From an uncultured Candidatus Saccharibacteria bacterium (GTDB taxonomy: Bacteria > Patescibacteriota > Minisyncoccia > Phycocordibacterales > PALSA-1337), in assembly GCA_964532285.1 (NCBI GenBank), contig CAZHHB010000001.1:77916-141915 (forward strand): a stretch of DNA of 64,000 nucleotides, given 5' to 3'. Under the pieces are notes generated by a model. It saw nothing but the letters and a program-made list of their open reading frames with translations, was not told where the DNA came from and did not search any database. Shown here piece after piece: positions 17,097 to 55,152 of this stretch. The translations under genes were made by a program, and so were the position numbers. The number at the start of each line of letters is the position of its first letter. Positions within the stretch are counted from its first letter, which is position 1.

Positions 17097-17106
17097 CGAG
17101 CTATAA

Positions 17107-17451: not shown

Positions 17452-17522
17452 GCGTTAATTGTAGCACATACTATCCCCATTTCTAAGCCATAAAATAACC
17501 CTTCTCTGATATAATTACTAGC

Positions 17523-20011: not shown

Positions 20012-20017
20012 AACATA

Positions 20018-22830: not shown

Positions 22831-22839
22831 TAACAACAA

Positions 22840-23274
22840 ATGCGATTCCAAGTTCCCCAATTTATAGAGGTAGAGGATAAGATTTTCGGACCAATCTCCT
22901 TGAAGCAATTCATCTATCTCGCTGGCGGGGGAGGACTGTCATTCTTGGTATATCTTTTCCTAGGCAACTTATTCTTCGCAGCCATACCGATCGCTATCAT
23001 CATGGCCATATCTCTAGCTCTGGCTTTCTACAAACTCAACGGCAAACCATTCATCAGTGTTATGGAGTCGGCCTTCAAATATTACCTCGGCAACAAACTC
23101 TATATTTGGAAGAAGCAGGAGAAAACTCCGCCGAAAGATGTTCAAACAGCCGTCAAAGATGTCAAAAATTACGCCTCCATCATGGTTCCGAAAATATCTG
23201 ATAGCAAACTGAAAGATCTGACATGGAGTTTGGATATAAAGGAGAGTGTTTATTCCAACAAGAATCAAAGGTAG
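22840..23274 (+). CDS. PrgI-family (VirB3-like) small membrane protein
   Basis: The N-terminus MRFQVPQFIEVEDKIFGPISLKQFIYLAGGG with two TM helices matches the PrgI family. It lies directly upstream of the VirB4 homologue. Confidence 0.55.
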   Translation: MRFQVPQFIEVEDKIFGPISLKQFIYLAGGGGLSFLVYLFLGNLFFAAIPIAIIMAISLALAFYKLNGKPFISVMESAFKYYLGNKLYIWKKQEKTPPKDVQTAVKDVKNYASIMVPKISDSKLKDLTWSLDIKESVYSNKNQR

Positions 23275-23282
23275 AAAATAAT

Positions 23283-23930
23283 ATGGCCACAACAGCACCA
23301 CAAAAAACAACTCAGGATTTCGTTCCCATCCAAGAAATACGCGATGGGGTAATAATCCTGAAAAATGGAGGAATGCGAGGTATTTTGTTGGCCTCATCAT
23401 TGAATTTTGCCTTGAAATCAGAAAATGAACAGGGTTCTATCCTGATGCAATTCCAAAATTTCTTGAATTCACTAGACTTCTCCATTCAGATCTTCATCCA
23501 ATCAAAAAAGCTAGATATTAGACCGTATACTGCACTTTTGGAAGACCGCTACAGAGAACAACAGAGTGAACTTATGAAGATACAAGTTCGCGAATACATA
23601 GAATTCATAAAGACTTTCGTAGAAAGCACGAACATAATGTCAAAAAGTTTCTTCGTGGTCATACCTTATGATCCCGCTATTCTGAGTGCCGGCAAAAATC
23701 CATTAAACAAGATGTTCCCTGGAAAAAATAAAGGAAAGACCGATACTGAAACCAACGAAAACCAATTCCAAGAATACCGAAGTCAGTTGGAACAACGTAT
23801 GGCGGTAGTAGAACAAGGCCTCGTCCGCTGTGGTATACGCGCCGCTGAGTTGGGAACTGAGGAGGTGGTAGAATTGTATTACAAACTGTTTAATCCTGGG
23901 GAGACGGAGAAGCCGATACAGATAACATAA
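23283..23930 (+). CDS. VirB4/TraC N-terminal-domain-like protein (possible split VirB4)
   Basis: 216 aa immediately upstream of the VirB4 ATPase gene, separated by 1 nt and in a different frame. The two proteins together total about 820 aa, the size of an intact VirB4. Confidence 0.35.
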   Translation: MATTAPQKTTQDFVPIQEIRDGVIILKNGGMRGILLASSLNFALKSENEQGSILMQFQNFLNSLDFSIQIFIQSKKLDIRPYTALLEDRYREQQSELMKIQVREYIEFIKTFVESTNIMSKSFFVVIPYDPAILSAGKNPLNKMFPGKNKGKTDTETNENQFQEYRSQLEQRMAVVEQGLVRCGIRAAELGTEEVVELYYKLFNPGETEKPIQIT

Positions 23931-23931
23931 T

Positions 23932-25746: not shown

Positions 25747-25765
25747 AAAGTGCTACAATTTACTC

Positions 25766-26266
25766 ATGGCATCAAAAGGGAATAAAGGAAAAGGAATCAA
25801 ATGGAAATTACTATATGCAATTACCGGCATAATTGACGCTATTCAGTTAATCATTGATTTTACTGGTGTAGGTATACTAATAAGCGAGATTCTAGAAATT
25901 ATCATGCCTTTTGTGCTTATTGGATATCTAAAAATAATCTGCAGGGTTTCTATGATCACCAAACCCATAAGACTTCTGTCTATAGTGGGAGCCACGGGAC
26001 TGGATGCTGTGACCGGTGGAGCCGCTCCTTTTTGGGTATTGGACGTCTGGTATATACATAATGATGTAAAGAAAGAAGACGCCGAATATAATGCCGCCAT
26101 ACAACAAGAAATGATGGTGAAAGAAGTATCCGACAGTATGAATCAAGATGGTGTCAGAACCCCATCTCAAACAGCAAAACCTTTGAATAGTGGGGGAGTT
26201 CGAGCGCCAACTTTCAATTCCAAACCACCTAGGACTAACCCCAGGATTACATCCGTGTTAAAATAA
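25766..26266 (+). CDS. small membrane protein, hypothetical
   Basis: Two or three TM helices. No family recognised. Confidence 0.3.
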   Translation: MASKGNKGKGIKWKLLYAITGIIDAIQLIIDFTGVGILISEILEIIMPFVLIGYLKIICRVSMITKPIRLLSIVGATGLDAVTGGAAPFWVLDVWYIHNDVKKEDAEYNAAIQQEMMVKEVSDSMNQDGVRTPSQTAKPLNSGGVRAPTFNSKPPRTNPRITSVLK

Positions 26267-26270
26267 ACCC

Positions 26271-27386
26271 ATGTCTCGCTCTCACAAACTATTAAATACT
26301 AGCTGTAAATCATTGTGGGGCATAGGCATCTTCGTCTTGGCCCTTACTTTCAACTTTCAATCCTTCGAGTCTAAAGGACTCTCAGGACCTGAACGGCTTT
26401 TAACTTTTAACTCTGTTCGCGCCCAAGGCATCCCCGTTTCGATAGGCGGTTTGGAGCTTTCTGCCTCAACTGACAACCCCGTACCAGGACAAAAAGTTAC
26501 GATTACGGCAAAAAGTTATAGTACAAACATCAACTCTGCCAAGATCTCCTGGACTGTTGCTGGCAAAAGCGTACTTTCGGGAACAGGAGCGACAAAATTG
26601 GAAGTAACAGCTCCTGCTCTTGGCAAGAGATTGACCGTGAATGCTTCCGCAATAACAGCAGAGGGTAGAACCTTAAATAGCTCTATTGCTATAAATTCTG
26701 GTTCTGTAGATATGATAATAGAATCTGATGGTTATGTCCCGACATCTTTCAGGGGTAAACTGAGTCCTGTCTACCAAAATCTCGTAACCATAACAGCGAT
26801 ACCGCATTTGGCGAATTCTTCGGGTGTGGAATATGATCCGAAGACCCTCGTGTATAACTGGAAGAAAAATAGCCAAGTCATCCAGGATCAAAGCGGATAT
26901 GGTAAGCAATCTATCACTTTGGCAGGGGATATTGTTCCGAGAGCATACACGCTGACTGTTACAGTAGGAACTCGCGATGGCAGTGCACAAGCGGTAGGTA
27001 TGGCTTCGGTTTCATTTAATGAACCTTCAATATCTTTCTATGTAGATGATCCACTGTATGGTCCGCTTTTCAATAGAACTATACTGGATTCTCTCCGCAT
27101 TGGTTCCAAAAACGAGACGAGTGTTCTCATGGTTCCGTTTGGCTACAACAAACCGTTTGATAGTATCGGCAGTTTGTCATTGTTATGGAAGATAAACGGT
27201 GTGGAACATGCAGAATTAGCAGAAAATGAATCAATTGTTCTCCGTGCACCAGAAGGATCTGCTGGGGCTTCGGCTATAGAGTTGGAGATTAGAAATTTGA
27301 GAGACATATTGCAAGGGGGTAGCAATGGGTTCAACGCCATATTCAGTGCCAACAGTTCATCCTCAACAGATTCAGTAACCTTTTAA
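26271..27386 (+). CDS. secreted hypothetical protein
   Basis: Signal peptide and a repetitive beta-rich composition. Confidence 0.35.
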   Translation: MSRSHKLLNTSCKSLWGIGIFVLALTFNFQSFESKGLSGPERLLTFNSVRAQGIPVSIGGLELSASTDNPVPGQKVTITAKSYSTNINSAKISWTVAGKSVLSGTGATKLEVTAPALGKRLTVNASAITAEGRTLNSSIAINSGSVDMIIESDGYVPTSFRGKLSPVYQNLVTITAIPHLANSSGVEYDPKTLVYNWKKNSQVIQDQSGYGKQSITLAGDIVPRAYTLTVTVGTRDGSAQAVGMASVSFNEPSISFYVDDPLYGPLFNRTILDSLRIGSKNETSVLMVPFGYNKPFDSIGSLSLLWKINGVEHAELAENESIVLRAPEGSAGASAIELEIRNLRDILQGGSNGFNAIFSANSSSSTDSVTF

Positions 27387-27391
27387 ATCAT

Positions 27392-28678
27392 ATGAAAAAT
27401 ATATTTTCAAAATCAGTTAGTAAATACGGCCTTTTATTTGTCTTCACGTTCGCAACCGTTACTGGTTCCGTCGCTGTGCCGACTATTACAAAGGCTGATT
27501 GGACAGATGTAACCGTTAAGACCAACTACACACTACTAGAGCCACTGCCTTGTATTCAGGGTAAAGAGGGGGCTTCTAGCACTATCCCTTGTACACCAGG
27601 ACAACAAGTAAAGCAGGTTAATTTCAAGGATTATGTTCAGTATGTATTCAATCTAATTATAGCCTTGGCGGCAGTCGCAGCGGTCTTTGTTATGGTGTAC
27701 GGCGGTTTTGAGTATATGACATCTCTATCTGCTTCAGGCAAAAGTGAGGGTCTCACCAGAGCCAAAAATGCCATCATGGGGCTTGTATTAGTCTTGGCAT
27801 CATTCCTCATCTTGCGAACAATAGATCCTAGGTTGGTTGAGATACCGAGTACTTTCCTGCCGCAGTTGCAATTGAAATGTCCGGATAATAAGGATTGGAA
27901 ATTATCCGACCCGAGATGCAAGTCGAATACACTATCATTGTTTGATAAATTAAGCAGAGATGCGGATGCCTATAATATTGAAATCAGGGATGTTAGGAGC
28001 AAGGTAGATCAAATAAATGCAGAGGTCAAAACACTAGAACAACAAAGAAAGACGGTGCAAGATAGAATTACTTCTTACGCTGGAGGTAACAGAACAGCCG
28101 ACGAACTCTGTCAGTATACATCTGGGGGACAATCTACCGGTGATTCTGAAATTGACGCTATGTGTCTGCAATTATTGAGCCTAGATGATCGTATAGCTAC
28201 TGGTCAAAACGAAAGCAACACCACAGCAGCCATTGGTCTGATAGAAAAAATCCTAGCAAGAAATATTTACGACTTACGTATTATAGATGGAACAATACCG
28301 TCTAGTTCTCTCGGAAATGTTCAACTTTCTTATAAGACTGGCTTTGAAACAGAAATTGCACAAGATTTATTGAATATAGATTCTCGTAGGAATGATTATA
28401 AAACACTTGTCGCAAATGATAGTGTAGCAAGCCAAAAGATCGATAACGAGGCCGACTATGCCAAGGCTTATCTGGAAATACAAAGGGAGTTATATCGTCT
28501 ATATTCTGGTAAATGGCAACAAACTATTGAATATGCATCGACAGCCAAGACAAGGGCTCAAGACAAAATCCAAGAGATAGCAAACAGATATGCACCACTT
28601 ATCAAAGATGCGGACTTACAGAAAAAATTGACTGAAAGACGTGATACAGCAAAAGAGGCGGTAAGGATCTACAAATAA
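27392..28678 (+). CDS. VirB2/TrbC-like pilin module fused to a ~280-aa coiled-coil domain
   Basis: Signal peptide, then the pilin-like block YVFNLIIALAAVAAVFVMVYGGFEYM-(polar loop)-KNAIMGLVLVLASFLIL, which is helix-GG-loop-helix. Confidence 0.35.
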   Translation: MKNIFSKSVSKYGLLFVFTFATVTGSVAVPTITKADWTDVTVKTNYTLLEPLPCIQGKEGASSTIPCTPGQQVKQVNFKDYVQYVFNLIIALAAVAAVFVMVYGGFEYMTSLSASGKSEGLTRAKNAIMGLVLVLASFLILRTIDPRLVEIPSTFLPQLQLKCPDNKDWKLSDPRCKSNTLSLFDKLSRDADAYNIEIRDVRSKVDQINAEVKTLEQQRKTVQDRITSYAGGNRTADELCQYTSGGQSTGDSEIDAMCLQLLSLDDRIATGQNESNTTAAIGLIEKILARNIYDLRIIDGTIPSSSLGNVQLSYKTGFETEIAQDLLNIDSRRNDYKTLVANDSVASQKIDNEADYAKAYLEIQRELYRLYSGKWQQTIEYASTAKTRAQDKIQEIANRYAPLIKDADLQKKLTERRDTAKEAVRIYK

Positions 28679-28679
28679 A

Positions 28680-29957
28680 ATGAAAAAAGTCTTCATCACA
28701 TTATCAATAATCTTCATCGTCGCTCTGGCTGTATTCGCTTACTGGTATTTCTCCATGAGCGGAAATTCTGGTCAGAGGACAACTTATGGTACCCCTACCC
28801 AAAATAACACCTTCGTACCACTGAACAGGCCGGGTACGACGAATACCGGCAGTACAGGAGGAGGAAACGCCACCACGAACACACCTTCAAACAATAATAC
28901 TGCCACACTGACACCAAATCAGAAAGCCAAAATACCTACATTGAGGCTTATCAGCAATTCTCCCGTCGGAGGCTACGGTGCCAGTACTACGGCCAGTACT
29001 ACCATCGTGCGTTGGGTTGATAGGGGGAGGGGCAATGTATTTCAAACTAGCGGAATTACTGAGGAAATAGACACCCTCTCAAACACCATCCTGCCTCGAG
29101 TATATGAAAGTTCCTGGAACAAAAACCTGACTGCTTTTATTGGGTCCGTATTTCAAGAGAATGGTCTGCCGAGTACGCTGTATGCGGAGATGAAAGCCCA
29201 GGCTTCTACCACATCAGCAACACCATTCATACTCAAAGGTAAAAACTTGCCAGAAAATATCATTGGCTATGCCACTTCACCCAAAAAAGACAAGCTATTC
29301 TATATGATAAGGGATAATGGAAGCGGGGTAGGCTATATCTCTACTTTTGAAGGCAAGTCTGTCAAAGAAATATTCAATACACCCCTCACACAAGTAAATG
29401 TTGACTGGCCGGAAGAAAACACTATCGCCATCACAACGAAGGGGACAGCCAGCCAAGGGGGCTATCTTTACTTCGTCAAACCAAACACAGGGGTTTGGAG
29501 CAAGATTGCTGGTCCTATCCAAGGGATAAGTGCTCGTGTCAGTCACGATGCCAAATACGCCATCATTTCCTCAACAAACAACGATACCAGGGAAATTTCT
29601 ACAAACATATACAATGTTAATAAATTAAACATGGGAGATGCTATGGTTCGTACCATTGCCGATAAGTGTACATGGGGTAATTTCTACAAAGAGATGGTCT
29701 ACTGCGGAGTACCCACCAAGAATATTTCCGGCACATATCCGGATGATTGGTACAAAGGGAATGTCTCATTCATAGACAAGGTGTGGCAGATCAATGCGGC
29801 CACCAGTGAAGTCCATCTGATATCCTCCATTCTAGACCAGTCTGACCGTGTTATAGACGCTTTCAACCTAGGTCTAGATCCCAGAGATACATATCTATTC
29901 TTCATGAACAAAAACGACCTATCGCTATGGTCGCTAGATCTAGTTTCTACACAGTAA
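28680..29957 (+). CDS. secreted or membrane-anchored hypothetical protein (last gene of the operon)
   Basis: N-terminal TM segment, an N/T/G-rich linker and a beta-rich C-terminal domain. Confidence 0.35.
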   Translation: MKKVFITLSIIFIVALAVFAYWYFSMSGNSGQRTTYGTPTQNNTFVPLNRPGTTNTGSTGGGNATTNTPSNNNTATLTPNQKAKIPTLRLISNSPVGGYGASTTASTTIVRWVDRGRGNVFQTSGITEEIDTLSNTILPRVYESSWNKNLTAFIGSVFQENGLPSTLYAEMKAQASTTSATPFILKGKNLPENIIGYATSPKKDKLFYMIRDNGSGVGYISTFEGKSVKEIFNTPLTQVNVDWPEENTIAITTKGTASQGGYLYFVKPNTGVWSKIAGPIQGISARVSHDAKYAIISSTNNDTREISTNIYNVNKLNMGDAMVRTIADKCTWGNFYKEMVYCGVPTKNISGTYPDDWYKGNVSFIDKVWQINAATSEVHLISSILDQSDRVIDAFNLGLDPRDTYLFFMNKNDLSLWSLDLVSTQ

Positions 29958-29985
29958 CTATTAATGTGACGGATTGCGCAGGCAG

Positions 29986-30125
29986 CGCCCAGCAAATTAT
30001 TTTGGGCGCAGCTGCGTGTTAGTCTTCCGAGTTATTGGTTGGCGAGCCATAGTCTGCCTCAGAGAAGCATAGACTGACGCACCCATCGCATACTCGCCGT
30101 CGCCCAAAATAATTTGCTGGGTGCC
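29986..30125. terminator. long inverted repeat (~25-bp arms, ~90-nt spacer) between convergent genes
   Basis: gcgcccagcaaattattttgggcgc pairs with cgcccaaaataatttgctgggtgc. It lies between the end of the T4SS-like operon and yidC. Confidence 0.45.
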
Positions 30126-30135
30126 GCCTGCATCA

Positions 30136-36983: not shown

Positions 36984-37061
36984 ATAGCGCCAAGCGAGGA
37001 TTTATGAAAGTTTATTTTCATAAAATCCGAGCGCAGGCGATATATGAGCGAAGCGAATATG
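36984..37061 (-). promoter_or_regulatory. conserved ~80-nt leader element, copy B, upstream of PBP1A
   Basis: The reverse complement matches copy A block by block: ttatattcgcttcgctcatatatcg .. gcgctcggatt-hairpin-aatcctcgcttgGcgctata. The hairpin stems differ by paired compensatory substitutions. It ends about 12 nt before the PBP1A ATG. Confidence 0.5.
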
Positions 37062-37064
37062 ACA

Positions 37065-37403
37065 CTACTGCTCCCATTTGTCACCAAAAGGGTTGAGTTC
37101 GTCGTCATCCAAACTAACTTCTTCCGATGTGGTTTCGTCAGTTTCTTCTTCTGGGATGAGGGGGTCAACTTCGGGTTTTTCGTCAGTACCAATGACTGGC
37201 TCTGGGAGATCGAGCTCCAAAGGTTTCTTGGATTTGGTTGGTGGAATATCCATGACTTCTTCCGTCTCGGTATGAGATTCCTCCACACGTGTCTCACTTT
37301 TTGTTTTTTTGTTTTGAGCGTGTTTTGTTGGCATACACTTAGTTTTTACATTGCTAAATTTAGTGCGTGCATATGTTGTAACAAAGACGCAATCCTTTTG
37401 CAA
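37065..37403 (-). CDS. acidic hypothetical protein
   Basis: K-rich N-terminus and a D/E-rich C-terminal half. No family recognised. Confidence 0.3.
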   Translation of the reverse strand: MQKDCVFVTTYARTKFSNVKTKCMPTKHAQNKKTKSETRVEESHTETEEVMDIPPTKSKKPLELDLPEPVIGTDEKPEVDPLIPEEETDETTSEEVSLDDDELNPFGDKWEQ

Positions 37404-37500: not shown

Positions 37501-37670
37501 CAAGGCGAATAATAGTTCCTCTCGCCAGCCTGCGGTACTCGCTCCGTGAAATTGCTAGGTAAAAGGCTCAGGAATTGTAAACAATTCCAACGACATTCGC
37601 CTTTTACCAAGCAATTTCTACTGCGCTCAGACATGTCCTCGGCTGTTTCGAGGAACTATTATTCGCCTTG
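37501..37670. repeat. structured repeat element, copy 2: 21-bp perfect outer inverted repeat around the same 111-bp core
   Basis: The outer arms caaggcgaataatagttcctc and gaggaactattattcgccttg are exact reverse complements. The core at 37530-37640 matches copy 1 with one mismatch. It lies just downstream of ruvC. Confidence 0.7.
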
Positions 37671-42298: not shown

Positions 42299-42649
42299 GT
42301 GAAAACCAACAAAATCGTTAAGCTGCTCAGTCTGATCATCCTGACCATCATCACCCTCAACTTCACTGGCTGCGTCACGTCCGTGACGAATACGGATTCC
42401 AGCGGCAATAAACATCGCCGCCTCAGCATCATGGACCCGCTGGCCAATTGCGCCAGCGATAATGGTGGAAATGTGCGGATCCAGCAGGGTGTGTCCATCG
42501 GCGGTGTGGGGCAGATCCAGACCACGGGTCGAATGATCTTCGTCCCAGAAGGGCAGAGCCCGCCACCGGGATTTGTTCCGGTCGGGTCTCAGACTCAGAC
42601 CAAGACTTGGAGTCCGACGGAAATGTCGGACACAACTATCAGACGGTGA
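42299..42649 (+). CDS. GC-rich small lipoprotein gene (GTG start)
   Basis: An AAGAAAGAGAG Shine-Dalgarno-like sequence lies 8 nt before the GTG. The signal peptide ends in a lipobox-like LNFTGC. GC content is about 55% against a ~40% background. It is bracketed by a consensus promoter and an intrinsic terminator. Confidence 0.45.
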   Translation: MKTNKIVKLLSLIILTIITLNFTGCVTSVTNTDSSGNKHRRLSIMDPLANCASDNGGNVRIQQGVSIGGVGQIQTTGRMIFVPEGQSPPPGFVPVGSQTQTKTWSPTEMSDTTIRR

Positions 42650-42747: not shown

Positions 42748-43236
42748 ATGAAAATTCACACATCACATTCACTGGAAGAAACACAAAAGATCGCCGCCGA
42801 ATGGCTGGTGAGTATTATCCAAGATCCGATCTTGGACAAGAAAGAAGCAACCGTCGTTGGCCTGTCTGGTCACCTCGGAGCTGGGAAGACGGCTTTTGTA
42901 AAAGCGGTGGCGAAGGAACTCGGAATTACAGGGGAGGTTACGAGTCCGACTTTTGTGCTGATGAAGATATATAGTATCGAGGTGAGGCCTAGTAGGCCTA
43001 ACCTACAAGGCCCAACCTACAAGGTCTCGCCTTGGACAAGACTGATTCACATCGACGCATACCGCCTAGAAAAAAGGGAAGAGTTACAAGCTTTGGACTT
43101 TGAGAATATTGTTTCGGATCCTGGTAATCTGGTGATGATAGAATGGCCGGAAAATGTGGATTTGAATGAGTTTGAGAAAAATTGTCACCTGAAGTTTGAG
43201 ATAAGGGATGGGGTTTATGAGATCAAGATTGATTAG
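42748..43236 (+). CDS. tsaE: tRNA threonylcarbamoyladenosine biosynthesis protein TsaE, carrying a ~17-aa in-frame insertion
   Basis: GLSGHLGAGKT P-loop, SPTFVL, and HIDAYRL. The insertion VRPSRPNLQGPTYKVSP is encoded by a GC-rich palindromic and repeated stretch. Confidence 0.75.
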   Translation: MKIHTSHSLEETQKIAAEWLVSIIQDPILDKKEATVVGLSGHLGAGKTAFVKAVAKELGITGEVTSPTFVLMKIYSIEVRPSRPNLQGPTYKVSPWTRLIHIDAYRLEKREELQALDFENIVSDPGNLVMIEWPENVDLNEFEKNCHLKFEIRDGVYEIKID

Positions 43237-44705: not shown

Positions 44706-47210
44706 ATGACCGCAAAAGTTATCCATGATAAAAAAAGATTGGTTTTGCTTGATGCTCACGCCATATTACATCGCGCATATCACGCTCTACCGGATTTCTC
44801 TACAGCCAAGGGTGAACCGACCGGTGCACTGTATGGTCTGTCGGCGATGCTTCTTAAAATTATTGAAGATTTGAAGCCGGATTACATAGTGGCTTGTTAT
44901 GATGTGAAGGGTCCGACCTATCGGCATGAAGCTTACAAAAAATACAAGGCTGGGAGGAAAGCGGCCGAAGATGACCTCGTCGCTCAGATGATAAGTTCAC
45001 GCAGAGTGTTTGAAGCATTCAATATCCCTATATATGACAAACAAGGTTTCGAGGCGGATGATATTTTGGGGACGATAGTAGAACAAATCACCCCCACACC
45101 CTCTCGGCCCGACGCGGTCTCCCTTCGTTTCGCTTCGCGAAAGTCGGGAGACGCGTCGCTGCCTGCGGGTGTGGGAGCGGTCGAGATAATCATAGCATCT
45201 GGCGATATGGATACTTTGCAATTGGTCAGTGGCAAAGATGTGAAGGTCTATACTTTGAAGAAGGGTTTGAATGACACGATTATGTATGACGAGGACGCTG
45301 TTAACAAGCGTTTTGGTTTTGGTCCGGAACTCATACCTGATTACAAGGGACTTCGTGGAGATCCATCGGATAACATCATTGGCGTGAAGGGTATAGGCGA
45401 GAAAACTGCCACGATATTGATCACGACATTTGGGACTATTGAAAATATGTATAAGGAGTTGGAGGCTGGTAATGACAATAAATTCAAAAAGGCTGGCATT
45501 ACTCCGCGCATCATTCAATTACTCAGAGACAATAAAGAAGAGGCAGAATTCAGTAAAATGCTGGCTACAATCCGTCGTGATGCACCGATAACATTTGAAT
45601 TGCCTAAGAAGACTTTCAGAGATGATTTGGATTTGAGGAAAGTGAAAAATCTATGGAATGAATTGGAGTTCAGGACATTGGGGCAGAGGCTAGATAAAGT
45701 TATGCATCCTGTAGTTGGGAACAAGATTGATGTGGGTGTTGTTGATGGGGAAGAGAGTTATAAAGTTAAAAGTGCAGAAAACACAAACCAACAGTCACTT
45801 TATGAGGCTGTTTCCAGTGATGAATTAGAGAAAACAGGTATAGCCCTGTGGCTTATTAATTCCAATATCGTAAACCCGAAACTTGAAGATGTTTTGAATT
45901 TTGTGAATACAGAAGACTTTGAGATTGCCAAGAAAAAGATATTTGAAGAATTGGATCACCTAGATCTGCGCAAGGTTTATGAAAACATTGAATTACCCCT
46001 GATCCCAATCACTCACAAGATGGAAGAATGTGGGGTAAAAATAGATCGTGTTGTATTACAAAACTTGGCGAAAACATATCACGCCGAAGTAGATAGGTTG
46101 AATAAAGAGATAACGAAATTGGCCGGCATGGAATTCAATATAAACTCCCCAAAACAACTAGGCGAAGTTTTGTTTGATAAATTGGGTCTAGTCGGGAAAA
46201 ATATGAAGAAAACTTCTGGCGGGGCGCGTTCTACTAGAGAATCAGAATTGGAGAAACTCCGCGGTTCGCACCCGATCATCCCTTTGATATTTGAACATCG
46301 CGAACTGCAAAAACTCCTATCTACTTACATAGATGCCATACCGCCGCTTCTGGATGACAAAGACAGATTGCATACCGATTTCATACAATCAGGCACTACT
46401 ACTGGTCGCATGGCTTCGCAGACACCAAATCTACAGAATATCCCGATCAAAACAGAACTCGGCAAAGCTATACGCAATGCTTTTATTGCGGAGAAAGGAT
46501 TCAAACTCTGTAGTTTTGATTATTCACAGGTGGAGCTTCGCATCGCTGCCTTTTTGTCCGGTGATGAGAAATTGTTGGAAATATTCCGAAAAGGGGAAGA
46601 CGTACATACTTCGGTAGCATCTTTCGTATTCAAGGTTCCGCGAGACGAAGTCACTCCAGCTATGCGTCGTCAGGCAAAGGTTATTAATTTCGGAATAATA
46701 TATGGCATGGGAGTGATGGCATTGAAACAAAATCTTGATACGACCAGAGATGAGGCGCAGAAGTTTTTGAATAGTTATTTTGAAACATTCAAAACCCTCG
46801 CTGATTATCTAGATAATGTGAAGAAGGAAACGGGGGAGCGCGGATACACGACTACTTTCTTCGGTCGCAGACGATCTTTCGAAGGCATAAATTCCAAGAT
46901 TCCATATATAAAGGCGGCGGCAGAACGCATGGCGATAAATGCTCCGATCCAGGGGACTGGAGCTGATATTGTGAAGTTGGCGATGATAAAGATAGATGGA
47001 TATATTAGGAAAAATAATTTGGAGAAAGATGTTTTTCCATTACTCCAGGTGCACGATGAATTGGTCTGTGAAATCCGTAATGAAAAAGCAAAGGATATTT
47101 CGTCTGAAATCCAGAAGATAATGGAGTCGGTGGTTGATCCGAAAGACATCAAGGGTATTGTATTGAAGTCATCGGCTTCTGTTGGTGATAATTGGGGAGA
47201 GCTCAAGTAG
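44706..47210 (+). CDS. polA: DNA polymerase I
   Basis: 5'-nuclease domain (LLDAHA.LHRAY..) plus the family A polymerase motifs A, B and C (DYSQVELR, RRQAKVINFGIIYG, VHDE). Confidence 0.9.
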   Translation: MTAKVIHDKKRLVLLDAHAILHRAYHALPDFSTAKGEPTGALYGLSAMLLKIIEDLKPDYIVACYDVKGPTYRHEAYKKYKAGRKAAEDDLVAQMISSRRVFEAFNIPIYDKQGFEADDILGTIVEQITPTPSRPDAVSLRFASRKSGDASLPAGVGAVEIIIASGDMDTLQLVSGKDVKVYTLKKGLNDTIMYDEDAVNKRFGFGPELIPDYKGLRGDPSDNIIGVKGIGEKTATILITTFGTIENMYKELEAGNDNKFKKAGITPRIIQLLRDNKEEAEFSKMLATIRRDAPITFELPKKTFRDDLDLRKVKNLWNELEFRTLGQRLDKVMHPVVGNKIDVGVVDGEESYKVKSAENTNQQSLYEAVSSDELEKTGIALWLINSNIVNPKLEDVLNFVNTEDFEIAKKKIFEELDHLDLRKVYENIELPLIPITHKMEECGVKIDRVVLQNLAKTYHAEVDRLNKEITKLAGMEFNINSPKQLGEVLFDKLGLVGKNMKKTSGGARSTRESELEKLRGSHPIIPLIFEHRELQKLLSTYIDAIPPLLDDKDRLHTDFIQSGTTTGRMASQTPNLQNIPIKTELGKAIRNAFIAEKGFKLCSFDYSQVELRIAAFLSGDEKLLEIFRKGEDVHTSVASFVFKVPRDEVTPAMRRQAKVINFGIIYGMGVMALKQNLDTTRDEAQKFLNSYFETFKTLADYLDNVKKETGERGYTTTFFGRRRSFEGINSKIPYIKAAAERMAINAPIQGTGADIVKLAMIKIDGYIRKNNLEKDVFPLLQVHDELVCEIRNEKAKDISSEIQKIMESVVDPKDIKGIVLKSSASVGDNWGELK
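45090..45180 (+). repeat. in-frame GC-rich palindromic insertion inside polA
   Basis: cccacacc ... ggtgtggg and cgacgcggtctccc ... gggagacgcgtcg. It encodes about 27 extra residues (TPTPSRPDAVSLRFASRKSGDASLPAGVGA) at a position where E. coli PolI has about 10. Confidence 0.45.
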
Positions 47211-47335
47211 GAAAGAGCGGTGGCATTTTATTTCCAAGGACGCGGATATTTTCCTGCTGGAAAATTCCTAGTGCTCGCGCCAGTCGCGCTCGCAGTGTCC
47301 TTGGAAATAAAATGTCACCGCTCTTTCCTTACTCG
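47211..47335. repeat. 32-bp near-perfect inverted repeat around a ~55-bp GC-rich core (polA-holA spacer)
   Basis: ggaaagagcggtggcattttatttccaaggac pairs with gtccttggaaataaaatgtcaccgctctttcc, with one mismatch. Confidence 0.55.
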
Positions 47336-47358
47336 CCATCAAACACTATACTTACAGT

Positions 47359-48153: not shown

Positions 48154-48705
48154 TCAATTGAAAGAGCTGATCGGACGGATATATACGGATGTCTCCTTGT
48201 CCGTATTGTCTTTGTAACGGATTCTGATTGACAGCTTCTCGCCCGTGAGAAGTCTGTACATCCAGTACTTATCACTCGACAACATTTGGTCGTGTGGGAG
48301 ACTGTGTGCGAAAAACCAGCACATCTTTTCGTATTCTTCGTTCGGGGCAAAGATTTTATCTATCCTCCCGATGTTTGCGAGATAGATGTGGACCAACCAA
48401 AGCGGGGTGGGGTTGTCGTTTATGTACCCGCGGAGAATACCGACCTTACGGAAACATCTCAGAGGGATAAATATTCCAGTTTCCTGTAGGACTTCTCTTT
48501 GGGCGCTGTGTTTCTGGCTTTTGTCAGTCGGTTCGGTAGCTCCGCCTGGCGGCACAAATTTGCCGCTTCCGACCACCTTCCGCGTTCTCTTTTCGTCACC
48601 CTTTCTTTTTTTCCTCTTCAAGCCGAGAAGAACTCTCGTCGTCCTTTGCCATATAGGCCTGTCGAGAATGAGGGTAACATTCCCCACATGTGTTTTAGTT
48701 TTCAT
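48154..48705 (-). CDS. NUDIX hydrolase
   Basis: The Nudix-box-like PGGATEPTDKSQKHSAQREVLQETGI carries REVxQETG. A K/R-rich stretch is inserted before the box. Confidence 0.55.
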   Translation of the reverse strand: MKTKTHVGNVTLILDRPIWQRTTRVLLGLKRKKRKGDEKRTRKVVGSGKFVPPGGATEPTDKSQKHSAQREVLQETGIFIPLRCFRKVGILRGYINDNPTPLWLVHIYLANIGRIDKIFAPNEEYEKMCWFFAHSLPHDQMLSSDKYWMYRLLTGEKLSIRIRYKDNTDKETSVYIRPISSFN

Positions 48706-48900
48706 ACGTTTTCAATTCTAAAGAAAGATTACTCCATGCCAGATTATTGTCAATTTATGCATCAACTTACAAAAAGGTGATTGCACAAAGCGTATTTTGT
48801 GATAATCTGTCAATTATCCTCTAGATTTGTTTATTGCGCCCATAGAAGGTTGGCGAAAGGTTAGTCGTTCCTTAAATTTAAAAACATTCTTTAAATATAT

Positions 48901-48973
48901 GCGCCCATAGCTCAGGTGGTAGAGCAACTCCCTTTTAAGGAGTGGGTCGTTGGTTCGAATCCAACTGGGCGCA
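48901..48973 (+). tRNA. tRNA-Lys (anticodon TTT)
   Basis: Acceptor GCGCCCA/TGGGCGC, D-arm TAGCTCAGGTGGTAGAGCA, anticodon stem ACTCC/GGAGT with loop CTTTTAA, T-arm GTTGG-TTCGAAT-CCAAC. Confidence 0.85.
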
Positions 48974-50551
48974 CCCTTCGCTAGATTTTATAAACATGTT
49001 GGAACATATAGGTTTCTTCGTATTTTGGCTTTTTTGTGATACGTGTTCGAGCTTCAAAAGTTGGTCAAAAAGTAGGGAGGGATTTGATTTTATTATAAGT
49101 CCGTCGGAAACTTGGAAATTATCCCAAAAGAATGCCAGGTATTGTCGTTTGAGGTCTGGCGAAGCTTTTATGTAGGCATCGTAAATATTTCTAGTGAGAT
49201 TTAGAATCTCCTGAGCGATATCCATATTCACATTCTTTTGTTTCTCAAGTTCAAACAGCCTGTCATCTATCCTTTGGATTTCTTGGTCTATCTCGGTCTT
49301 CACTCTAGTGAAATCATCATCGGAGATTATATTGGCAAATAGTTTTTCTTCAGCCACCTTTCTCTTTATTTCGTATGCAGTTCGTTGATTGACGCATTCT
49401 TTCCTCTTGATTTCATATGTTTTGCGTCGTTCATAAAATATAGCTTTTGCTTTGCCGATTACCTTATCAATAAACACCTGACTGAATTCTATCGTCTTGA
49501 ATTTCTCTGCGACCATATCTTCAAGCCTCCAAGTCTCAATGTACTTGCCACAACCAGATGGGCGAGAGCAGTGATAGTACGCCTTACTTTTGTTCAAGTG
49601 CCATTCGGCGGAGTAACGACATTCGTGGGTATAACAACGGACGAATCCGCTTAAGAGCCAAGAATATCGTCTCCTACGACAAGCATGCTTATTTTTTGCC
49701 ATCATCACTTTCTGCACTTGATCGAAAAGTTCCTTACTGATAAGAGGTTCATGTTTTCCATCTTTGTTGTGTACATCACTCCAGTGTACTTCACCAATGA
49801 AGAACCTATTTTTTAAGGTGTTATAGAGCTGGGCATCAGACCGTTTACCACCATGCTTTGTTTGTAGTCCTTTCTCAAACATAATGTCGTTTAGTTCGTA
49901 GACATTATAATTACCTGTCGCGTACAGTTTGAACGCTTCCTTAACAAGCGGTCCGTCATGTGGGTCAATGATTATGCTTTTCTGACCAAAGCGCCCAATG
50001 GATAAATTGGGAGTACTAACGTTTTTGTAACCGACTGGAGCCATGCAAGGGTAGTAGCCCGCTTTAGCTTTTTCTTTCATTGTCATGATGACTTTTTCGG
50101 ATGTTATATCCCTGTGGAATTGGTTCATTGATGCCATGACAGTACTGACCATTTTGGAAGTAGCCGAATCATCCATGTCTGGTTGTTGAATACACTTAAC
50201 TAATACTCCATTTTTACGAAACAAATCCATAAGATTTAGGTGGTCTAGGGTATTGCGAGCCAGTCGGTCGCTGTGAACGACATAGATAGCATTGATGGAC
50301 TTTGCCAAGACGAGTTTTATTACCTGCTGAATCCCAGGTCTTTTCAAGGTACCAGCGCTTTTGCCTTCGTCCTTGATAACTTCTAGGATTGAATACCCGT
50401 CTTTTGTGGCGTCTTCGATGCAGATATTCTCCTGTGATTCAATAGAGAGTCCTGTACTTGCTTGGTCATCAGTACTCACACGGCAATAAATGACGGCAAC
50501 CTTTTTGCCCAATTCGGGCATCGTATAATTTTGTGATTGTGAGTTTGTCAT
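48935..50551 (-). CDS. large serine recombinase (integrase type)
   Basis: Resolvase domain (VAVIYCRVSTDDQ with a catalytic Ser), a recombinase domain, and a Cys-rich zinc-ribbon with a coiled-coil C-terminus. The 3' end of the ORF runs about 39 nt into the tRNA-Lys 3' half. Confidence 0.8.
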   Translation of the reverse strand: MTNSQSQNYTMPELGKKVAVIYCRVSTDDQASTGLSIESQENICIEDATKDGYSILEVIKDEGKSAGTLKRPGIQQVIKLVLAKSINAIYVVHSDRLARNTLDHLNLMDLFRKNGVLVKCIQQPDMDDSATSKMVSTVMASMNQFHRDITSEKVIMTMKEKAKAGYYPCMAPVGYKNVSTPNLSIGRFGQKSIIIDPHDGPLVKEAFKLYATGNYNVYELNDIMFEKGLQTKHGGKRSDAQLYNTLKNRFFIGEVHWSDVHNKDGKHEPLISKELFDQVQKVMMAKNKHACRRRRYSWLLSGFVRCYTHECRYSAEWHLNKSKAYYHCSRPSGCGKYIETWRLEDMVAEKFKTIEFSQVFIDKVIGKAKAIFYERRKTYEIKRKECVNQRTAYEIKRKVAEEKLFANIISDDDFTRVKTEIDQEIQRIDDRLFELEKQKNVNMDIAQEILNLTRNIYDAYIKASPDLKRQYLAFFWDNFQVSDGLIIKSNPSLLFDQLLKLEHVSQKSQNTKKPICSNMFIKSSEGCAQLDSNQRPTP

Positions 50552-50749
50552 AGTAGTAGTTTGATTATTTTTTTATTTTATAAACTTGCGCAGAATAAAC
50601 AACCGGAGTTATACACACTAATTACAACTATTAAGAGCTTGCGATTAATGAGTGATTTGGGATTTTAGATAACAATTATTTATTTAATTTCTTATAGGTT
50701 AGTTATTGTACTAAGATGCTTTATAGCTCACTCTAAAGATTCTTTATGG

Positions 50750-51151
50750 TCACCATAAATTAGGTGGCATACTCCTCGGTTTCTTCTTTTCATTCTTGGC
50801 TGTATTTATAATCTTATCCACATACTTCCATCGATCTATTGCTTCTGGTCCCAAATTCAAGCACACTCTTCCGTTGCGGTAACTTTGCACAATAAGTTCA
50901 TCGCGTTTCAATCGTTTCAGAGCCTTGAAGACGGTTACTGATGATGTCCGCGCAATCTTTGCCATTAACTCCTTACTGGCGTAGCAGTACAGTCCTTTTC
51001 GATGGAATGAGCAAACAAGAGAAAGAACAACAACTTCAATCGGGTTCAGATTAAAATATGACGATACACCGCAGTAGACGAGGTAGTACATTTCTTCAAT
51101 GTTCGCCTGATAACCTGTTGTTGGAGTTTGGTTTTCCATTTTTTTGCTCAT
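50750..51151 (-). CDS. winged-helix protein resembling the RepA N-terminal domain
   Basis: ..YASKELMAKIARTSSVTVFKALKRLKRDELI, a helix-turn-helix/winged-helix pattern. Confidence 0.3.
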   Translation of the reverse strand: MSKKMENQTPTTGYQANIEEMYYLVYCGVSSYFNLNPIEVVVLSLVCSFHRKGLYCYASKELMAKIARTSSVTVFKALKRLKRDELIVQSYRNGRVCLNLGPEAIDRWKYVDKIINTAKNEKKKPRSMPPNLW

Positions 51152-51384
51152 TTTGATTTGTAATCTTTTGATCGACCTGTTCAATGAAAATAGACGCCAA
51201 CATTTCTGTTGCTTCATCAATTATTTTTTGATTAATATCTGCGTCTTTCATTGTAAAGACAATCAAACCACGAAGAAAATGAATTTGCCCTTATGAAATA
51301 TTTTTTTGTTTGCATGACAAAAATATCCTTATTTTATAAGGATTAAATTACGATATCTGAAAAATTATCCCAGATATATCCCAC

Positions 51385-52215
51385 TCAGACCTGTATGTAA
51401 TATAAAAATAATTTAAAACCAGACCCCATTTTTTTGATTTCAATAGGCATTCTCTTTTTTGCTATTGATTTTCGCATATCTCTTATAATCTGAAATACTT
51501 CTCTTCGCCAAAAATCGATCACCGCGCCGCTGTAATCTTTACCAATAGAGTTTGCTAAAAAGCTGACACTTACAATGCCACCATTTTTATAAATTCGACC
51601 ACTTGCTTTATCTTTGACCTCTCGTTCCCTCCATAATTTTTGAAAAAATTCTTTACGTCTATTTTCATGAAATGAGATGGCTTTATTCCCAAAACTAAGA
51701 ACACCTCGTTCAAAATTAAATCTTGGTCTCGTTACTCCTTGTTTGTAAGAATGTACAAGTTTTTTTAACTTGCCAAGTCTTTGTAGATTGATTTCAATCT
51801 TGGCACATTGTAATTCAATAGAAATGTGCGGATTGTCGTTATCTATTCGTGTGTAATAATGCAATGATAAAAATACACACTCTTTTAATAAATATCCAAG
51901 AAATTGCTTTATCACTATGTGTTCAAAATATCTTAACTGCGAATCGGTATCACCATCATCAATTATGCGATCAATATCAATATTTATGATTTTTGAACGG
52001 GTCCGTCTTTTTCTGAGCTCTATAGCTTTTTGATAGATTAATTCTGAATAGTAGAGAAAATCCTTTTTTGCCCCAACTCTAACATGTTCAATTTGTTCAA
52101 GAGTAGGTGGTTCTAAACTCGTAATTCCATATTCTTTTTCAGCAAGTTTTAGAGACTCAAGAATAGAGAAGTCTTTAATTTTCGATGGCGATAATTTTTT
52201 AGTTACTTTTTTCAT
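51385..52215 (-). CDS. hypothetical protein (possible replication protein of the element)
   Basis: No motif recognised. It sits next to the iteron-like region. Confidence 0.25.
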   Translation of the reverse strand: MKKVTKKLSPSKIKDFSILESLKLAEKEYGITSLEPPTLEQIEHVRVGAKKDFLYYSELIYQKAIELRKRRTRSKIINIDIDRIIDDGDTDSQLRYFEHIVIKQFLGYLLKECVFLSLHYYTRIDNDNPHISIELQCAKIEINLQRLGKLKKLVHSYKQGVTRPRFNFERGVLSFGNKAISFHENRRKEFFQKLWREREVKDKASGRIYKNGGIVSVSFLANSIGKDYSGAVIDFWRREVFQIIRDMRKSIAKKRMPIEIKKMGSGFKLFLYYIQV

Positions 52216-52682
52216 AGAATACCCCAGTACTTAACAGCTGTTCCTTTGCGTAAAACTAAGTTATAACACATTCAAATCGGCTTTTGTATAGGTAACACCA
52301 AGTTTGTATGTTTTCCATAGAATATCCATAGTTTTCTAATAACTCGTCTTACCCGACATATATCATAGCTCTATCATAGGTCTTTCCAGTAACATTCATG
52401 GTTTTTCTATCTTTAAATCTTAGGTTTTCTAAGGTTCTCTAAGTTATTCACAAATAATCATTTGGTGCTATGATACGGATACAACTGAATATCGTGAAAG
52501 TAGCCTAAACTAGTAAGTAATTATTAGCATGGCAAAAAATCCCATGGAAGATACTGAACCCCACGTTCAGCGCTCTTCCATGGGTTATACCGGGAAACTG
52601 GTATAGAAGCCGTAAGGCTTTGCTGGCGTGGGGCTTAGTGTTTATACACTGACCCCCTACCATAAACTGTGGGTCTTTTTGC
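52216..52682. repeat. iteron-like direct repeats and a nested hairpin (candidate element origin)
   Basis: Repeated ccatagaata / catag units and ttctaaggttctctaag. A hairpin cccatggaaga..(ctgaac cccacg ttcag)..tcttccatggg lies at 52541-52585. Confidence 0.35.
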
Positions 52683-53234
52683 ATGGATAAGAAACAACTA
52701 CAAACAGAAAAGGAAAGTTTTGCTGAAGACGAGGTTTTGTTTTCGGTATTTCAAGGTGCACTTAACCGAGGTTATCCATATCTTGTCTATGAGAAAAACA
52801 CTGATGTAGAGAGAAGGGGAGACTTTAAGATCTACTTGTCAAAATTATTGAGAAAATATCAAGGACTTGTAATACAAAGTCCCGATAAAAATACGGACAT
52901 TATTTCGGATTTTCAAGTAGAGATAAATAGGTCTGAGTTCACTGATATTCTAAAGAAACAGACGATAACATTTGGGCGAGTCCAAAAACTTCTTAATCTG
53001 TATTTGAAGTACCATTGGATTTTTAATTGTGATGAAGACAATTTCGAACCGCCACATTGTCCAATCGATTCTATAATTCTTGGGGAAATAGGATGGGTCG
53101 GTCCTTCATGGGCAAATCCAAGATTCGGTAAAAGCGAATACGATAAAGCTATCGAGAAATGTAAGACGAAAGCCCATGGCGTGAAAATCGCAGAATGGGA
53201 GCTCGTAACATTTAATAATCGAACAAAGGAATAA
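52683..53234 (+). CDS. hypothetical protein
   Basis: 183 aa, no family recognised. Confidence 0.3.
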   Translation: MDKKQLQTEKESFAEDEVLFSVFQGALNRGYPYLVYEKNTDVERRGDFKIYLSKLLRKYQGLVIQSPDKNTDIISDFQVEINRSEFTDILKKQTITFGRVQKLLNLYLKYHWIFNCDEDNFEPPHCPIDSIILGEIGWVGPSWANPRFGKSEYDKAIEKCKTKAHGVKIAEWELVTFNNRTKE

Positions 53235-53350
53235 ATTATGAGTAATTTCTTATCCACACAAAAATCTAGGTTTATTTATTTAACAGCAGTATTTAATATA
53301 AGCAAGTATGTATAACTTCTCTTGAAAATTAATAAATATAAAAAGCTAAC

Positions 53351-54205
53351 ATGAAAATAAGATACACTTTAGTTACATTCGTAATCGCCACACTGATAAT
53401 TCCTAACATAGTTTTTGCTGTGTGGTGGAATCCTCTCTCGTGGTTTAGGAAATCGGTACCAGTATCACAATTATTCTCCTCTACAACTCAACCTACTGTT
53501 GAGGAACTACTGAAAAAGGTCGAGACACTACAGAAACAGATCGATGAGAAAGGTCCTCAACTCAGCCAAACTGTAGAAATTCCCGAAGTGATTAAGAATG
53601 AGCCTAAACAAATAATTAAGACTAGCGTTACATCTAATGATAACAGTCAGTTAAAGAAGGAGTTAGAAGGACTTAGAAATAAAGTAGCCAAAGAAGAGGC
53701 GTGTCGTAGTGCAGATAGTATCTTGAAAGAAGCCCACGATGTTTATGATTCTGGGGTCAGAAGAATAACTAGTGAATATGCTTCGATCAATGAATTGGTT
53801 TCTATAATAGCCAGCACATCACAAGAATATAAAATTATGAGTGAAGATTACAACCTCTTATGTCCAGTACCTACAAGAGAGAACATAATCACCTACTGCA
53901 TGAATTGGAATAGTCATTTGACATATCACAATCATACCCGTGACTATTCTTTGTCAGATGACCCTGAAACTAGAAAAAATCGTATATTTACTTGTGGAAT
54001 AAATGCTAAAGATTTGAACGGTATTATTGTTAGTAGAGCTGATTGGCAGAATAACATTGATAATTTGATAACAACATGGACAAAAGAGTGTGGAAGAATG
54101 AATAAAAACTTTTCAGCTGAATATATTACGCTCCAGAAGAATTACAACCGCTTGTTAGAGCTACAAAAAGAATATGATATTCAAGCTAAATTGTGCAAGC
54201 AGTAA
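53351..54205 (+). CDS. secreted hypothetical protein
   Basis: Signal peptide, several Cys residues and a coiled-coil segment. Confidence 0.35.
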   Translation: MKIRYTLVTFVIATLIIPNIVFAVWWNPLSWFRKSVPVSQLFSSTTQPTVEELLKKVETLQKQIDEKGPQLSQTVEIPEVIKNEPKQIIKTSVTSNDNSQLKKELEGLRNKVAKEEACRSADSILKEAHDVYDSGVRRITSEYASINELVSIIASTSQEYKIMSEDYNLLCPVPTRENIITYCMNWNSHLTYHNHTRDYSLSDDPETRKNRIFTCGINAKDLNGIIVSRADWQNNIDNLITTWTKECGRMNKNFSAEYITLQKNYNRLLELQKEYDIQAKLCKQ

Positions 54206-54223
54206 TATAAGTAACTTATCCAA

Positions 54224-54436
54224 ATGAATACAATACAAAAAATCTTAATACTAGCTAGCATAATACTGACTCTGTCAGCTTCAGTCAGTCTAATTTACTA
54301 TTTTGTCGCAAGACCTATACAACAAGATATACGACTTGATGAATGTCTTGATTCAATGTGGGCTCTTTATGGTAATCAAGACGATTTATATAAGGAGAAA
54401 GTAAATCTTTGCATTAAGGAGATTAAGGGGAATTAA
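54224..54436 (+). CDS. small membrane protein
   Basis: 70 aa with one TM helix. Confidence 0.3.
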   Translation: MNTIQKILILASIILTLSASVSLIYYFVARPIQQDIRLDECLDSMWALYGNQDDLYKEKVNLCIKEIKGN

Positions 54437-54447
54437 ATAATATAAAC

Positions 54448-55152
54448 ATGCGCCTCTGGACTTACATAAAATCCCTGAATAAAAGGCTGATAATTACTGC
54501 AATTGCTTTGTTGGGGTTTATTTCGTTACTTGTCTATTTGGAAAACACACCAAGGATTATGGAATATAAGAACGATGTTGTTCAGGAAAAGAAATCGTAT
54601 ACAGACGAAGATGTAAAACAAATAATGGAGAGAATAGCCAAACTTTCGGCGATCGATTACGACTTCATCTGTCCAGAAAAATATACGGATTCTAAAACTT
54701 ATATTGACGATACAGCGAAGTTTACAAGAAATTATCTTGATATATACCCCGATGCGACAAAAGACGATATATTATATTTTCGTAGTAGTCTCCTGGTAAA
54801 ATATAATTGCTCGGGCTCTTCTTATGGGATAGCGAGGGATAATTCCGCAGAACTTAATCTAAGCGGAAAGGTTGTGTCATTTATGACTTACGGACGAATT
54901 ATAGTAGAGAACCATGTCTCCGATTCGTCGTCATTCGTGTATTTTATTGCAGAACCGACTGATGTAATTACCGATAGTGTCTTCAGATATAGTCCAACGA
55001 CCTTTAGACTAGACGAGGGAGATACTGTTAAGGTCATTGGGAAGGTGATAGACGAATGCTACTGGAATGATGAAGATTATGGTGGTTGCGTGCCTCTGGT
55101 GGAAATAAGAGACTTGCAAAAAGTACAAAGCGACGATATCACCCGTATTTAA
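54448..55152 (+). CDS. membrane-anchored hypothetical protein
   Basis: N-terminal TM helix. No family recognised. Confidence 0.3.
   Translation: MRLWTYIKSLNKRLIITAIALLGFISLLVYLENTPRIMEYKNDVVQEKKSYTDEDVKQIMERIAKLSAIDYDFICPEKYTDSKTYIDDTAKFTRNYLDIYPDATKDDILYFRSSLLVKYNCSGSSYGIARDNSAELNLSGKVVSFMTYGRIIVENHVSDSSSFVYFIAEPTDVITDSVFRYSPTTFRLDEGDTVKVIGKVIDECYWNDEDYGGCVPLVEIRDLQKVQSDDITRI

Follow-up and report, generated by a model that had tools for sequence, protein, structure and literature searches.

In-frame GC-rich hairpin inserts in the polA and tsaE genes of an uncultured patescibacterium

Two housekeeping genes in a 64,000-nt stretch of contig CAZHHB010000001.1 from an uncultured Candidatus Saccharibacteria bacterium (assembly GCA_964532285.1; the whole stretch is called the window below) each carry a short, GC-rich inverted-repeat insert that leaves the reading frame open. 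The larger insert, a 91-nt hairpin, lies in polA, the gene for DNA polymerase I (Pol I), and the smaller, a 64-nt quasi-palindrome, lies in tsaE, which is found upstream of polA in relatives too. Both are specific to the lineage of the window, in frame and hairpin-forming, and the loops that they lengthen are insertion hot spots across the Paceibacteria. On balance, we lean towards regarding both inserts as selfish GC-rich palindromic DNA, members or remnants of repeat families that have been kept in frame at structurally permissive turns and are translated as disordered loops. Both genes are most likely still intact and functional, with products that bear decorated loops.

Two inserts and the loops that they lengthen

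The homologues of the window PolA carry the Pfam 5'-3' exonuclease and DNA_pol_A domains, and the protein matches the solved Pol I structures 6vde and Taq. A first-pass annotation, made from the DNA sequence alone, had described in polA a GC-rich segment of ~90 nt with nested inverted repeats, seated in a loop of the 5'-nuclease domain without breaking the frame, and this description holds for the arms, the base composition and the fold alike (Table 1). The stem comprises ~36 bp, of which 34 are Watson-Crick and 2 are G-U pairs, and the GC content of the insert is 0.63-0.68, as compared with a window mean of 0.42 (sd 0.076, 60-nt windows). Folded as RNA, the + strand reaches -57.6 kcal/mol (z -5.5) and the - strand -65.9 kcal/mol (z -7.0), while the DNA fold scores -32.6 (z -5.2); these z-scores refer to 200 dinucleotide shuffles, none of which (0/200) was as stable. 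Among all 100-nt windows of the 64 kb, this hairpin ranks first in fold stability. Its two halves are not self-palindromic beyond an octamer in the inner right arm, and the structure is one continuous 91-nt hairpin rather than a dimer of smaller units. Stop codons are nearly absent from all six reading frames of the element.

A separate inverted repeat sits at the other end of the gene. Within 47200-47340, which folds at -83.5 kcal/mol, a 121-nt near-perfect hairpin (47209-47329; 33-nt arms, 97% complementarity) takes in the final two bases of the polA stop codon and occupies most of the space before the following holA-like gene. Its sequence is unrelated to that of the polA insert, and it could be an element resembling a miniature inverted-repeat transposable element (MITE) or an oversized terminator.

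At the protein level, the polA hairpin coincides with codons T129-A158 (45090-45179), which encode a loop of 30 residues rich in Pro, Ser, Arg, Ala and Gly, the reading frame being open throughout. Across 120 aligned PolA N-termini, EADDxLGTIVEQx and xExIIASGDMD are normally separated by ~6 residues (e.g., KKDKNL), and the three closest homologues (P0001-P0003) have this short form and no insert. Even the best homologues share only 75-76% identity with the window protein, and all belong to the Patescibacteria/Parcubacteria (Paceibacteria: Taylorbacteria, Nomurabacteria, Kaiserbacteria and similar). At the DNA level, 83 polA loci were compared, comprising the window, 78 of 80 species-representative genome loci and 4 contigs of individual homologues; the distance between the motif ends is 15 amino acids in 46 of the 83 and 40 in the window. 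The net gain is thus ~24-25 residues relative to Paceibacteria relatives and ~26 relative to solved Pol I, close to the ~27 first estimated, and the alignment to 6vde is interrupted at residues 128 and 160, where 31 residues stand opposite 5.

Structural modeling places the insert in a low-confidence coil. In an AlphaFold2 model of PolA residues 1-334, built from a 25-sequence alignment and having a mean predicted local distance difference test score (pLDDT) of 86, residues 129-158 form a coil between a helix (117-128) and a strand (159-165) of the 5'-nuclease domain; pLDDT falls below 50 at residues 135-156 and exceeds 90 in the neighboring elements, and the loop is probably disordered according to this model. 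Since the helix begins with the acidic residues of EADD and the strand leads into GDMD, the turn that joins their other ends would lie remote from the metal site, a placement drawn from the fold.

The insert in tsaE follows the same plan on a smaller scale. As first reported, it includes a 15-nt palindrome and a duplicated 11-mer between the conserved SPTFVL and HIDAYRL motifs, and it also holds several overlapping short palindromes. Its hairpin has z-scores of -4.9 as + strand RNA, -4.3 as - strand RNA and -4.2 as DNA. Relative to the baseline length held by 34 of 70 Paceibacteria orthologues, the window TsaE is longer by 14 amino acids, and relative to the Thermotoga maritima protein (6n9a), where the alignment is interrupted at the insert and 23 residues stand opposite 5, by 18, against an earlier estimate of ~17. 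The 6n9a alignment suggests that the insert lies in the turn that links the two motifs. Both the PolA and the TsaE loops have ~5-7 residues in solved structures and in most relatives, and the orthologue alignments that the first-pass annotation had called for bear out its expectation that the two inserts are lineage-specific, the closest relatives having neither.

Table 1. Positions of the two host genes, their inserts and related features in the window
Feature	Position	Strand	Basis and remarks
tsaE (162 aa), host of the smaller insert	42748..43236	+	Pfam TsaE, E 5.6e-28
tsaE quasi-palindromic insert, 64 nt	42974..43037	+	residues ~76-98 SIEVRPSRPNLQGPTYKVSPWTR; core 56% GC
Palindrome AGGCCTAGTAGGCCT within the tsaE insert	42985..42999	+	sequence; opposite-strand self-match
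Tandem duplication of AACCTACAAGG, period 14 nt	43000..43024 (copies 43000-43010, 43014-43024)	+	sequence
polA (DNA polymerase I, 834 aa), host of the larger insert	44706..47210	+	open reading frame and translation; Pol I homologues
polA insert, GC-rich 91-nt hairpin	45089..45179	+	pair list, fold z, GC, homologues without insert
Outer left arm CCCACACCC	45093..45101	+	pairs with 45167-45175 (GGGTGTGGG)
Inner left arm CGACGCGGTCTCCC	45110..45123	+	pairs with 45146-45158
Apical stem-loop (CGTTTCGC TTC GCGAAAG)	45126..45143	+	contains the 10-mer TTCGCTTCGC
Inner right arm GGGAGACGCGTCG	45146..45158	+	includes the 8-nt perfect palindrome GACGCGTC
Outer right arm GGGTGTGGG	45167..45175	+	pairs with 45093-45101
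PolA peptide across the right-hand junction of the insert	D149-K177		SGDASLPAGVGAVEIIIASGDMDTLQLVSGK; tryptic after K146
NUDIX gene	48154-48705	-	Pfam NUDIX

The same loops in other Paceibacteria

The window is far from the only locus in which these two loops have grown. In relatives, the loop inserts are of two kinds, namely low-complexity or tandem-repeat expansions and GC-rich hairpins. Non-hairpin, low-GC expansions of the polA loop, rich in Lys, occur in five loci (L001, L004, L008, L018 and L022). GC-rich hairpins with z-scores of -4 to -8.7 are found at the polA loop of L005, L006, L002/L012, L046, L031, L067, L010 and L011, and those of these ~8 other lineages differ in sequence from one another; that of L005, with a loop of 62 residues, folds at -86 kcal/mol (z -7.9). 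At the tsaE loop, GC-rich hairpins occur in L046 (z -7.8/-9.2), L058 (z -10), L006 and L003. Heptanucleotide repeats also enlarge the polA loop in frame, as (AGTCAAA)n, (GCAAGTT)n or (GGCAAAA)n (L003 5347-5475, L012 6349-6561, L032 6368-6399), with (AGTCAAA)n at this position in both L003 and L012. The polA genes of L002 and L003 are broken into several called open reading frames (ORFs), and frameshift errors from long-read sequencing are a possible cause.

Several of the hairpins in relatives have further copies. L005 has a 32-nt exact second copy of its insert in the inter-domain linker of polA, and L067 likewise has a second copy inside polA. In L002 (the same as L012), three copies of a repeat of the form GTCATTCCCGC...GCGGGAATGAC lie in or beside polA (10447-10474, 11098-11184 and 12712-12799), and this repeat, translated as PAKAGIQ or DSRLRGND, is also present in L006 (5177-5204) and L047 (8624-8650). 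The clearest dispersed family of in-frame hairpins in the group is that of L046, a Paceibacteria metagenome-assembled genome (MAG; CAYUVX010000030), in which the tsaE loop and the polA loop each hold an in-frame copy of one ~40-nt element, the two copies being oppositely oriented (2035-2075 and 2684-2722; 36 of 39 positions identical; AGGCCGGGCyTTGkGAGTACCCAAGGCCGGG).

Among the 65 genomes with both loops readable, a tsaE-loop hairpin is present in 3 of the 4 that have a polA-loop hairpin and in 2 of the 61 that do not (Fisher p=9e-4, uncorrected for genome relatedness). Given this co-occurrence across both loops, hairpin carriage belongs to the genome rather than to any one gene, and the window genome is one of the colonized genomes.

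Origin of the inserts

How might such DNA have come to lie within two housekeeping genes? In the scenario that we favor, that of selfish palindromic repeats, a non-autonomous repeat element or its remnant would land in a housekeeping gene and survive only where the reading frame is kept and the turn is structurally permissive. In polA, a 91-nt hairpin would have replaced the ~6-residue turn between the EADD-headed helix and the strand to GDMD; in tsaE, a quasi-palindrome would have extended the turn between SPTFVL and HIDAYRL by 14 residues. The repeated use of the same two loops could then reflect selection that purges insertions elsewhere, and no site targeting would be needed. Such a history presumes a repeat family that has other copies outside the 64 kb and reached the two genes by transposition or recombination, and it presumes that the inserts are translated and neutral. 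The GC content of the inserts, 0.56-0.69 as compared with 0.42 for the genome, suggests a foreign origin. Also in favor of the scenario are the hairpin folds and their statistics, the breaks at both inserts in alignments to solved structures, the low-pLDDT coil, the near absence of stops from the six frames of the polA element and, among relatives, the unrelated hairpins at the same polA loop, their further copies and the co-occurrence by genome.

Several observations weigh against this scenario. The search for further copies that the first-pass annotation had proposed came back empty in the 64-kb window, where neither the exact outer-arm pattern nor a direct-repeat search revealed a second polA insert, and gapped alignment of this insert to every 100-nt tile of the window gave no further copy. 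Nor was there one by blastn-short (word size 7) in the window plus 973 kb of related loci, the same ground over which the tsaE insert has no other copy or relative. The exact two-arm polA pattern is without a match in the collections genome_contigs and metagenome_contigs, and the six-frame peptides of the polA insert have no match at E<=10 in a set of 5.8 billion proteins (sources including NCBI and nr). The two inserts bear no sequence likeness to each other, to the long intergenic hairpins of the window or, with composition controlled, to the inserts of relatives. No target-site duplication or other direct repeat flanks either one, and a Pfam scan of ~57 window ORFs (~64 kb) contains no Y1/RAYT or other candidate transposase. 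Moreover, the polA hairpin of ~90 nt stands in for an ancestral loop of ~18 nt and is no clean addition, and the insert in tsaE bears the imprint of local slippage, a 14-nt tandem duplication. The uncorrected relatedness in the co-occurrence test belongs on the same side of the ledger.

Several apparent relatives of the inserts were considered and set aside. A one-arm polA pattern has 3 matches in metagenome_contigs, approximately the number expected by chance, on contigs of 56-67% GC and with no hairpin. A 15/16 match between the polA and L005 inserts, in a CGAAG pentamer repeat, is not significant with composition controlled (z 2.0; equaled by 13 of 300 shuffles), and an intergenic hairpin at 58971-59022 aligns with gaps to the tsaE insert (z 4.1 against shuffles) no better than unrelated sites in the window do. 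An origin from a structured-RNA gene was also rejected: an Rfam 15 search at gathering scores returned nothing at either insert, and all that the E-value mode added were miRNA-like chance matches scoring 11-17 bits, as compared with cut-offs of 40-114.

Instead of arriving from elsewhere, the palindromes may have been made in place and never been mobile, through slippage and intramolecular template switching within length-tolerant loops, in lineages that tolerate hairpins owing, for example, to reduced hairpin-processing repair. An origin of this kind would be at ease with two inserts that are singletons in all searches, with the tandem duplication and overlapping short palindromes in tsaE, and with the hairpin-free growth of this polA loop by simple repeats or low-complexity sequence in relatives. 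Tolerance of hairpins at the level of the genome would likewise account for the co-occurrence in polA and tsaE. In-place formation is harder to square with a GC content far above that of the surrounding genes and of the usual Lys/Asp/Asn-rich loop codons, with a 36-bp stem that is long to have arisen stepwise, and with the loop hairpins of four relatives, which clearly belong to dispersed multi-copy families. We consider in-place formation, the main rival, unlikely, and a selected function distinctly more so. The latter might take the form of an mRNA or antisense structure that adjusts ribosome pausing or the expression of polA, of a DNA cruciform site, or of a protein-binding loop on Pol I, and the very stable fold, the antisense strand being 8 kcal/mol more stable by way of two G-U pairs, would be in keeping with it, as would the repeated striking of the same loop across lineages. 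However, the loop inserts of different lineages share no sequence, length or peptide motif, most relatives, including the closest at 75-76% identity, manage with no insert, no Rfam family matches either element, and disorder is predicted for the encoded peptide.

Could the inserts be artefacts of assembly or sequencing, such as a chimeric join or an adaptor-like hairpin? None of the collections searched includes the source genome, and hence they afford no cross-check of its sequence; but both inserts are in frame and stop-free, and analogous in-frame hairpins occupy the same loops in many MAGs from independent assemblies and different projects, which makes this explanation hardly credible. To our knowledge, the inserts also resemble no PacBio, Illumina or Nanopore adaptor sequence.

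Among known systems, the selfish-repeat reading has a close counterpart in the Rickettsia palindromic elements (RPEs), which are ~100-nt palindromic DNAs found in frame in unrelated housekeeping genes and translated at sites that the protein fold tolerates (PMC10969869). The first-pass annotation had drawn this comparison, and it stands as far as behavior goes: the window inserts are in-frame hairpins at fold-compatible coding sites, as judged from open frames, low-pLDDT coil and breaks in alignments to solved structures; the bacterium also resembles Rickettsia in its small genome and its dependence on a host; and the loop inserts of relatives are multi-copy and land in the same genes, which is why the behavior fits. 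In size, the 91-nt polA insert is compatible with palindromic hairpins of roughly 100-150 bp, and the tsaE insert is shorter. What did not emerge is kinship by repetition or by descent. The RPEs (RPE-1 to RPE-10) form families of dozens of copies with a conserved peptide, whereas neither window insert has another copy in the data searched, and the polA insert peptides have no match at the threshold given above, a comparison in which homology was judged on peptides and not on RPE consensus DNA. The phylum differs as well, being Patescibacteria here, and the window inserts are markedly GC-rich relative to their own genome and mutually unrelated.

Repetitive extragenic palindromes (REPs) also occur within genes, often as dimers that encode 20-30 amino acids, and many of the affected genes serve replication and repair, including that for DNA polymerase I (Di Nocera et al. 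2013, PMC3733652). REP mobilization has been proposed to proceed via single-stranded hairpins that leave no target duplication, and the absence of such a duplication at the window inserts fits this proposal; they have inverted arms as a MITE does but not its flanking duplication. REP units, however, measure 20-40 bp, occur in many copies and carry a GTAG or CGTC tag at one end. The polA insert, one hairpin of 91 nt, falls outside this unit size. CGTC does occur at 45154-45157 in the polA right arm and GTAG at 42992-42995 in the tsaE palindrome, neither of them at an element end. Closer to home, the GTCATTCCCGC...GCGGGAATGAC repeat of Paceibacteria resembles the window insert in standing in frame at the same polA loop (L006, L002/L012), and at other polA sites besides, but it has another sequence, is multi-copy and shared between genomes, and does not occur in the window, where 8 matches at <=2 mismatches compare with 12.5 expected by chance. 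The GC clusters and 'byp' elements of yeast mitochondria are GC-rich mobile hairpins that enter genes of an AT-richer genome, and sponge mitochondria reportedly harbor repetitive hairpin-forming elements. These are organellar systems, and byp elements are skipped by the ribosome. For the window inserts, we set aside translational bypassing and RNA-level excision, because the polA hairpin coincides with an open in-frame block of 30 codons and plain translation is the simpler reading.

A broader proposal, about which we are more hesitant, is that the Paceibacteria, a group of the Candidate Phyla Radiation (CPR), harbor many lineage-specific families of GC-rich hairpins that colonize the polA and tsaE loops in frame, and that the window inserts are new families of this kind. 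Some genomes would then be heavily colonized and others clean, and the whole may be a CPR counterpart of the RPE phenomenon. In-frame palindromic inserts in housekeeping genes are themselves known; what appears to be new is their occurrence in Patescibacteria and the recurrence of unrelated GC-rich hairpins at the same loops, of which we found no published account in the literature searched.

Surroundings of the two genes and wider meaning

The window covers the replication origin region, with rnpA, yidC, dnaA and dnaN at 30-34 kb, and further contains a cluster resembling a type IV secretion system (T4SS), ruvC, yebC, ruvB and a gene for a PilB-like ATPase, followed by tsaE, polA, the holA-like gene, the NUDIX gene, tRNA-Lys and a serine recombinase gene. 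The NUDIX gene had been put forward as a possible third host of the same kind of insert, a suggestion that fails on the DNA of its K/R-rich stretch (~48571-48624), which is purine-rich, low in complexity and non-palindromic and folds no better than shuffles (z -2.1 to +0.9). A GC-rich block at 42399-42610 was likewise dismissed as an in-frame insert in the PilB-like ATPase gene; it lies upstream of the likely true start (~42166), in a separate ORF on the + strand.

Two long intergenic hairpins, at 16935-17102 (-78 kcal/mol) and 29978-30131 (-80 kcal/mol), have GCCCAGCAAAT(T)AT..TTTT in common in their terminal inverted repeats, which suggests that they form a MITE family. Of the former, an inner stretch of 121 nt (16959-17079) recurs at 37526-37646 with 98% identity and without the termini. 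These two MITE-like hairpins and that at 47209-47329 are unrelated in sequence to the polA and tsaE inserts. A motif of ~45 nt, GTGTyATATTCGCTTCGCTCATATATCGyCkGCGCTCGGATT, occurs at 9245-9290 (+) and 37030-37075 (-), upstream of a 525-aa ORF and of a PBP1 gene; Rfam offers no match for it at gathering level, and it is probably the 'leader' of the first-pass annotation, of which the polA insert was said to hold an echo. The echo amounts to the 10-mer TTCGCTTCGC, which does recur at 9254 and 37048, but nothing else is common to the insert and the motif.

The T4SS-like cluster, in 17500-30000, includes genes for a PrgI-like protein (22840-23271) and a TraG/VirB4-like ATPase (23932-25743) amid large ORFs without Pfam matches, beside the origin genes. 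On the far side of polA, tRNA-Lys (48900-48976) abuts the large serine recombinase gene (48935-50551, -), after which comes a block of low GC content (0.355 versus 0.42) that consists mostly of ORFs without Pfam matches and holds a LOOT RNA (52502-52621, 98 bits); the region 48900-58000 looks like a mobile element integrated at the tRNA gene. Several strong hairpins crowd 58700-59100, between a Pfam-less ORF (58155-58754) and a putative parA (59111-59920) upstream of parB (60094-60990); they have no Rfam match at E<=0.1, and an ORF of 288 aa at 58910-59776, on the opposite strand, is probably spurious.

The consequence of the two inserts for the window itself is modest, and their interest lies in what in-frame palindromic inserts represent, namely selfish DNA that lengthens the surface loops of essential proteins while the host stays alive, and thereby a route to new protein sequence. 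If our interpretation is right, the presence or absence of an insert could serve as a strain-typing marker, and the hairpins would be likely break points in assemblies and gene calls. It would also account for part of the odd extra residues in CPR core proteins, and a phenomenon best known from Rickettsia would reach a very different group of bacteria with reduced genomes.

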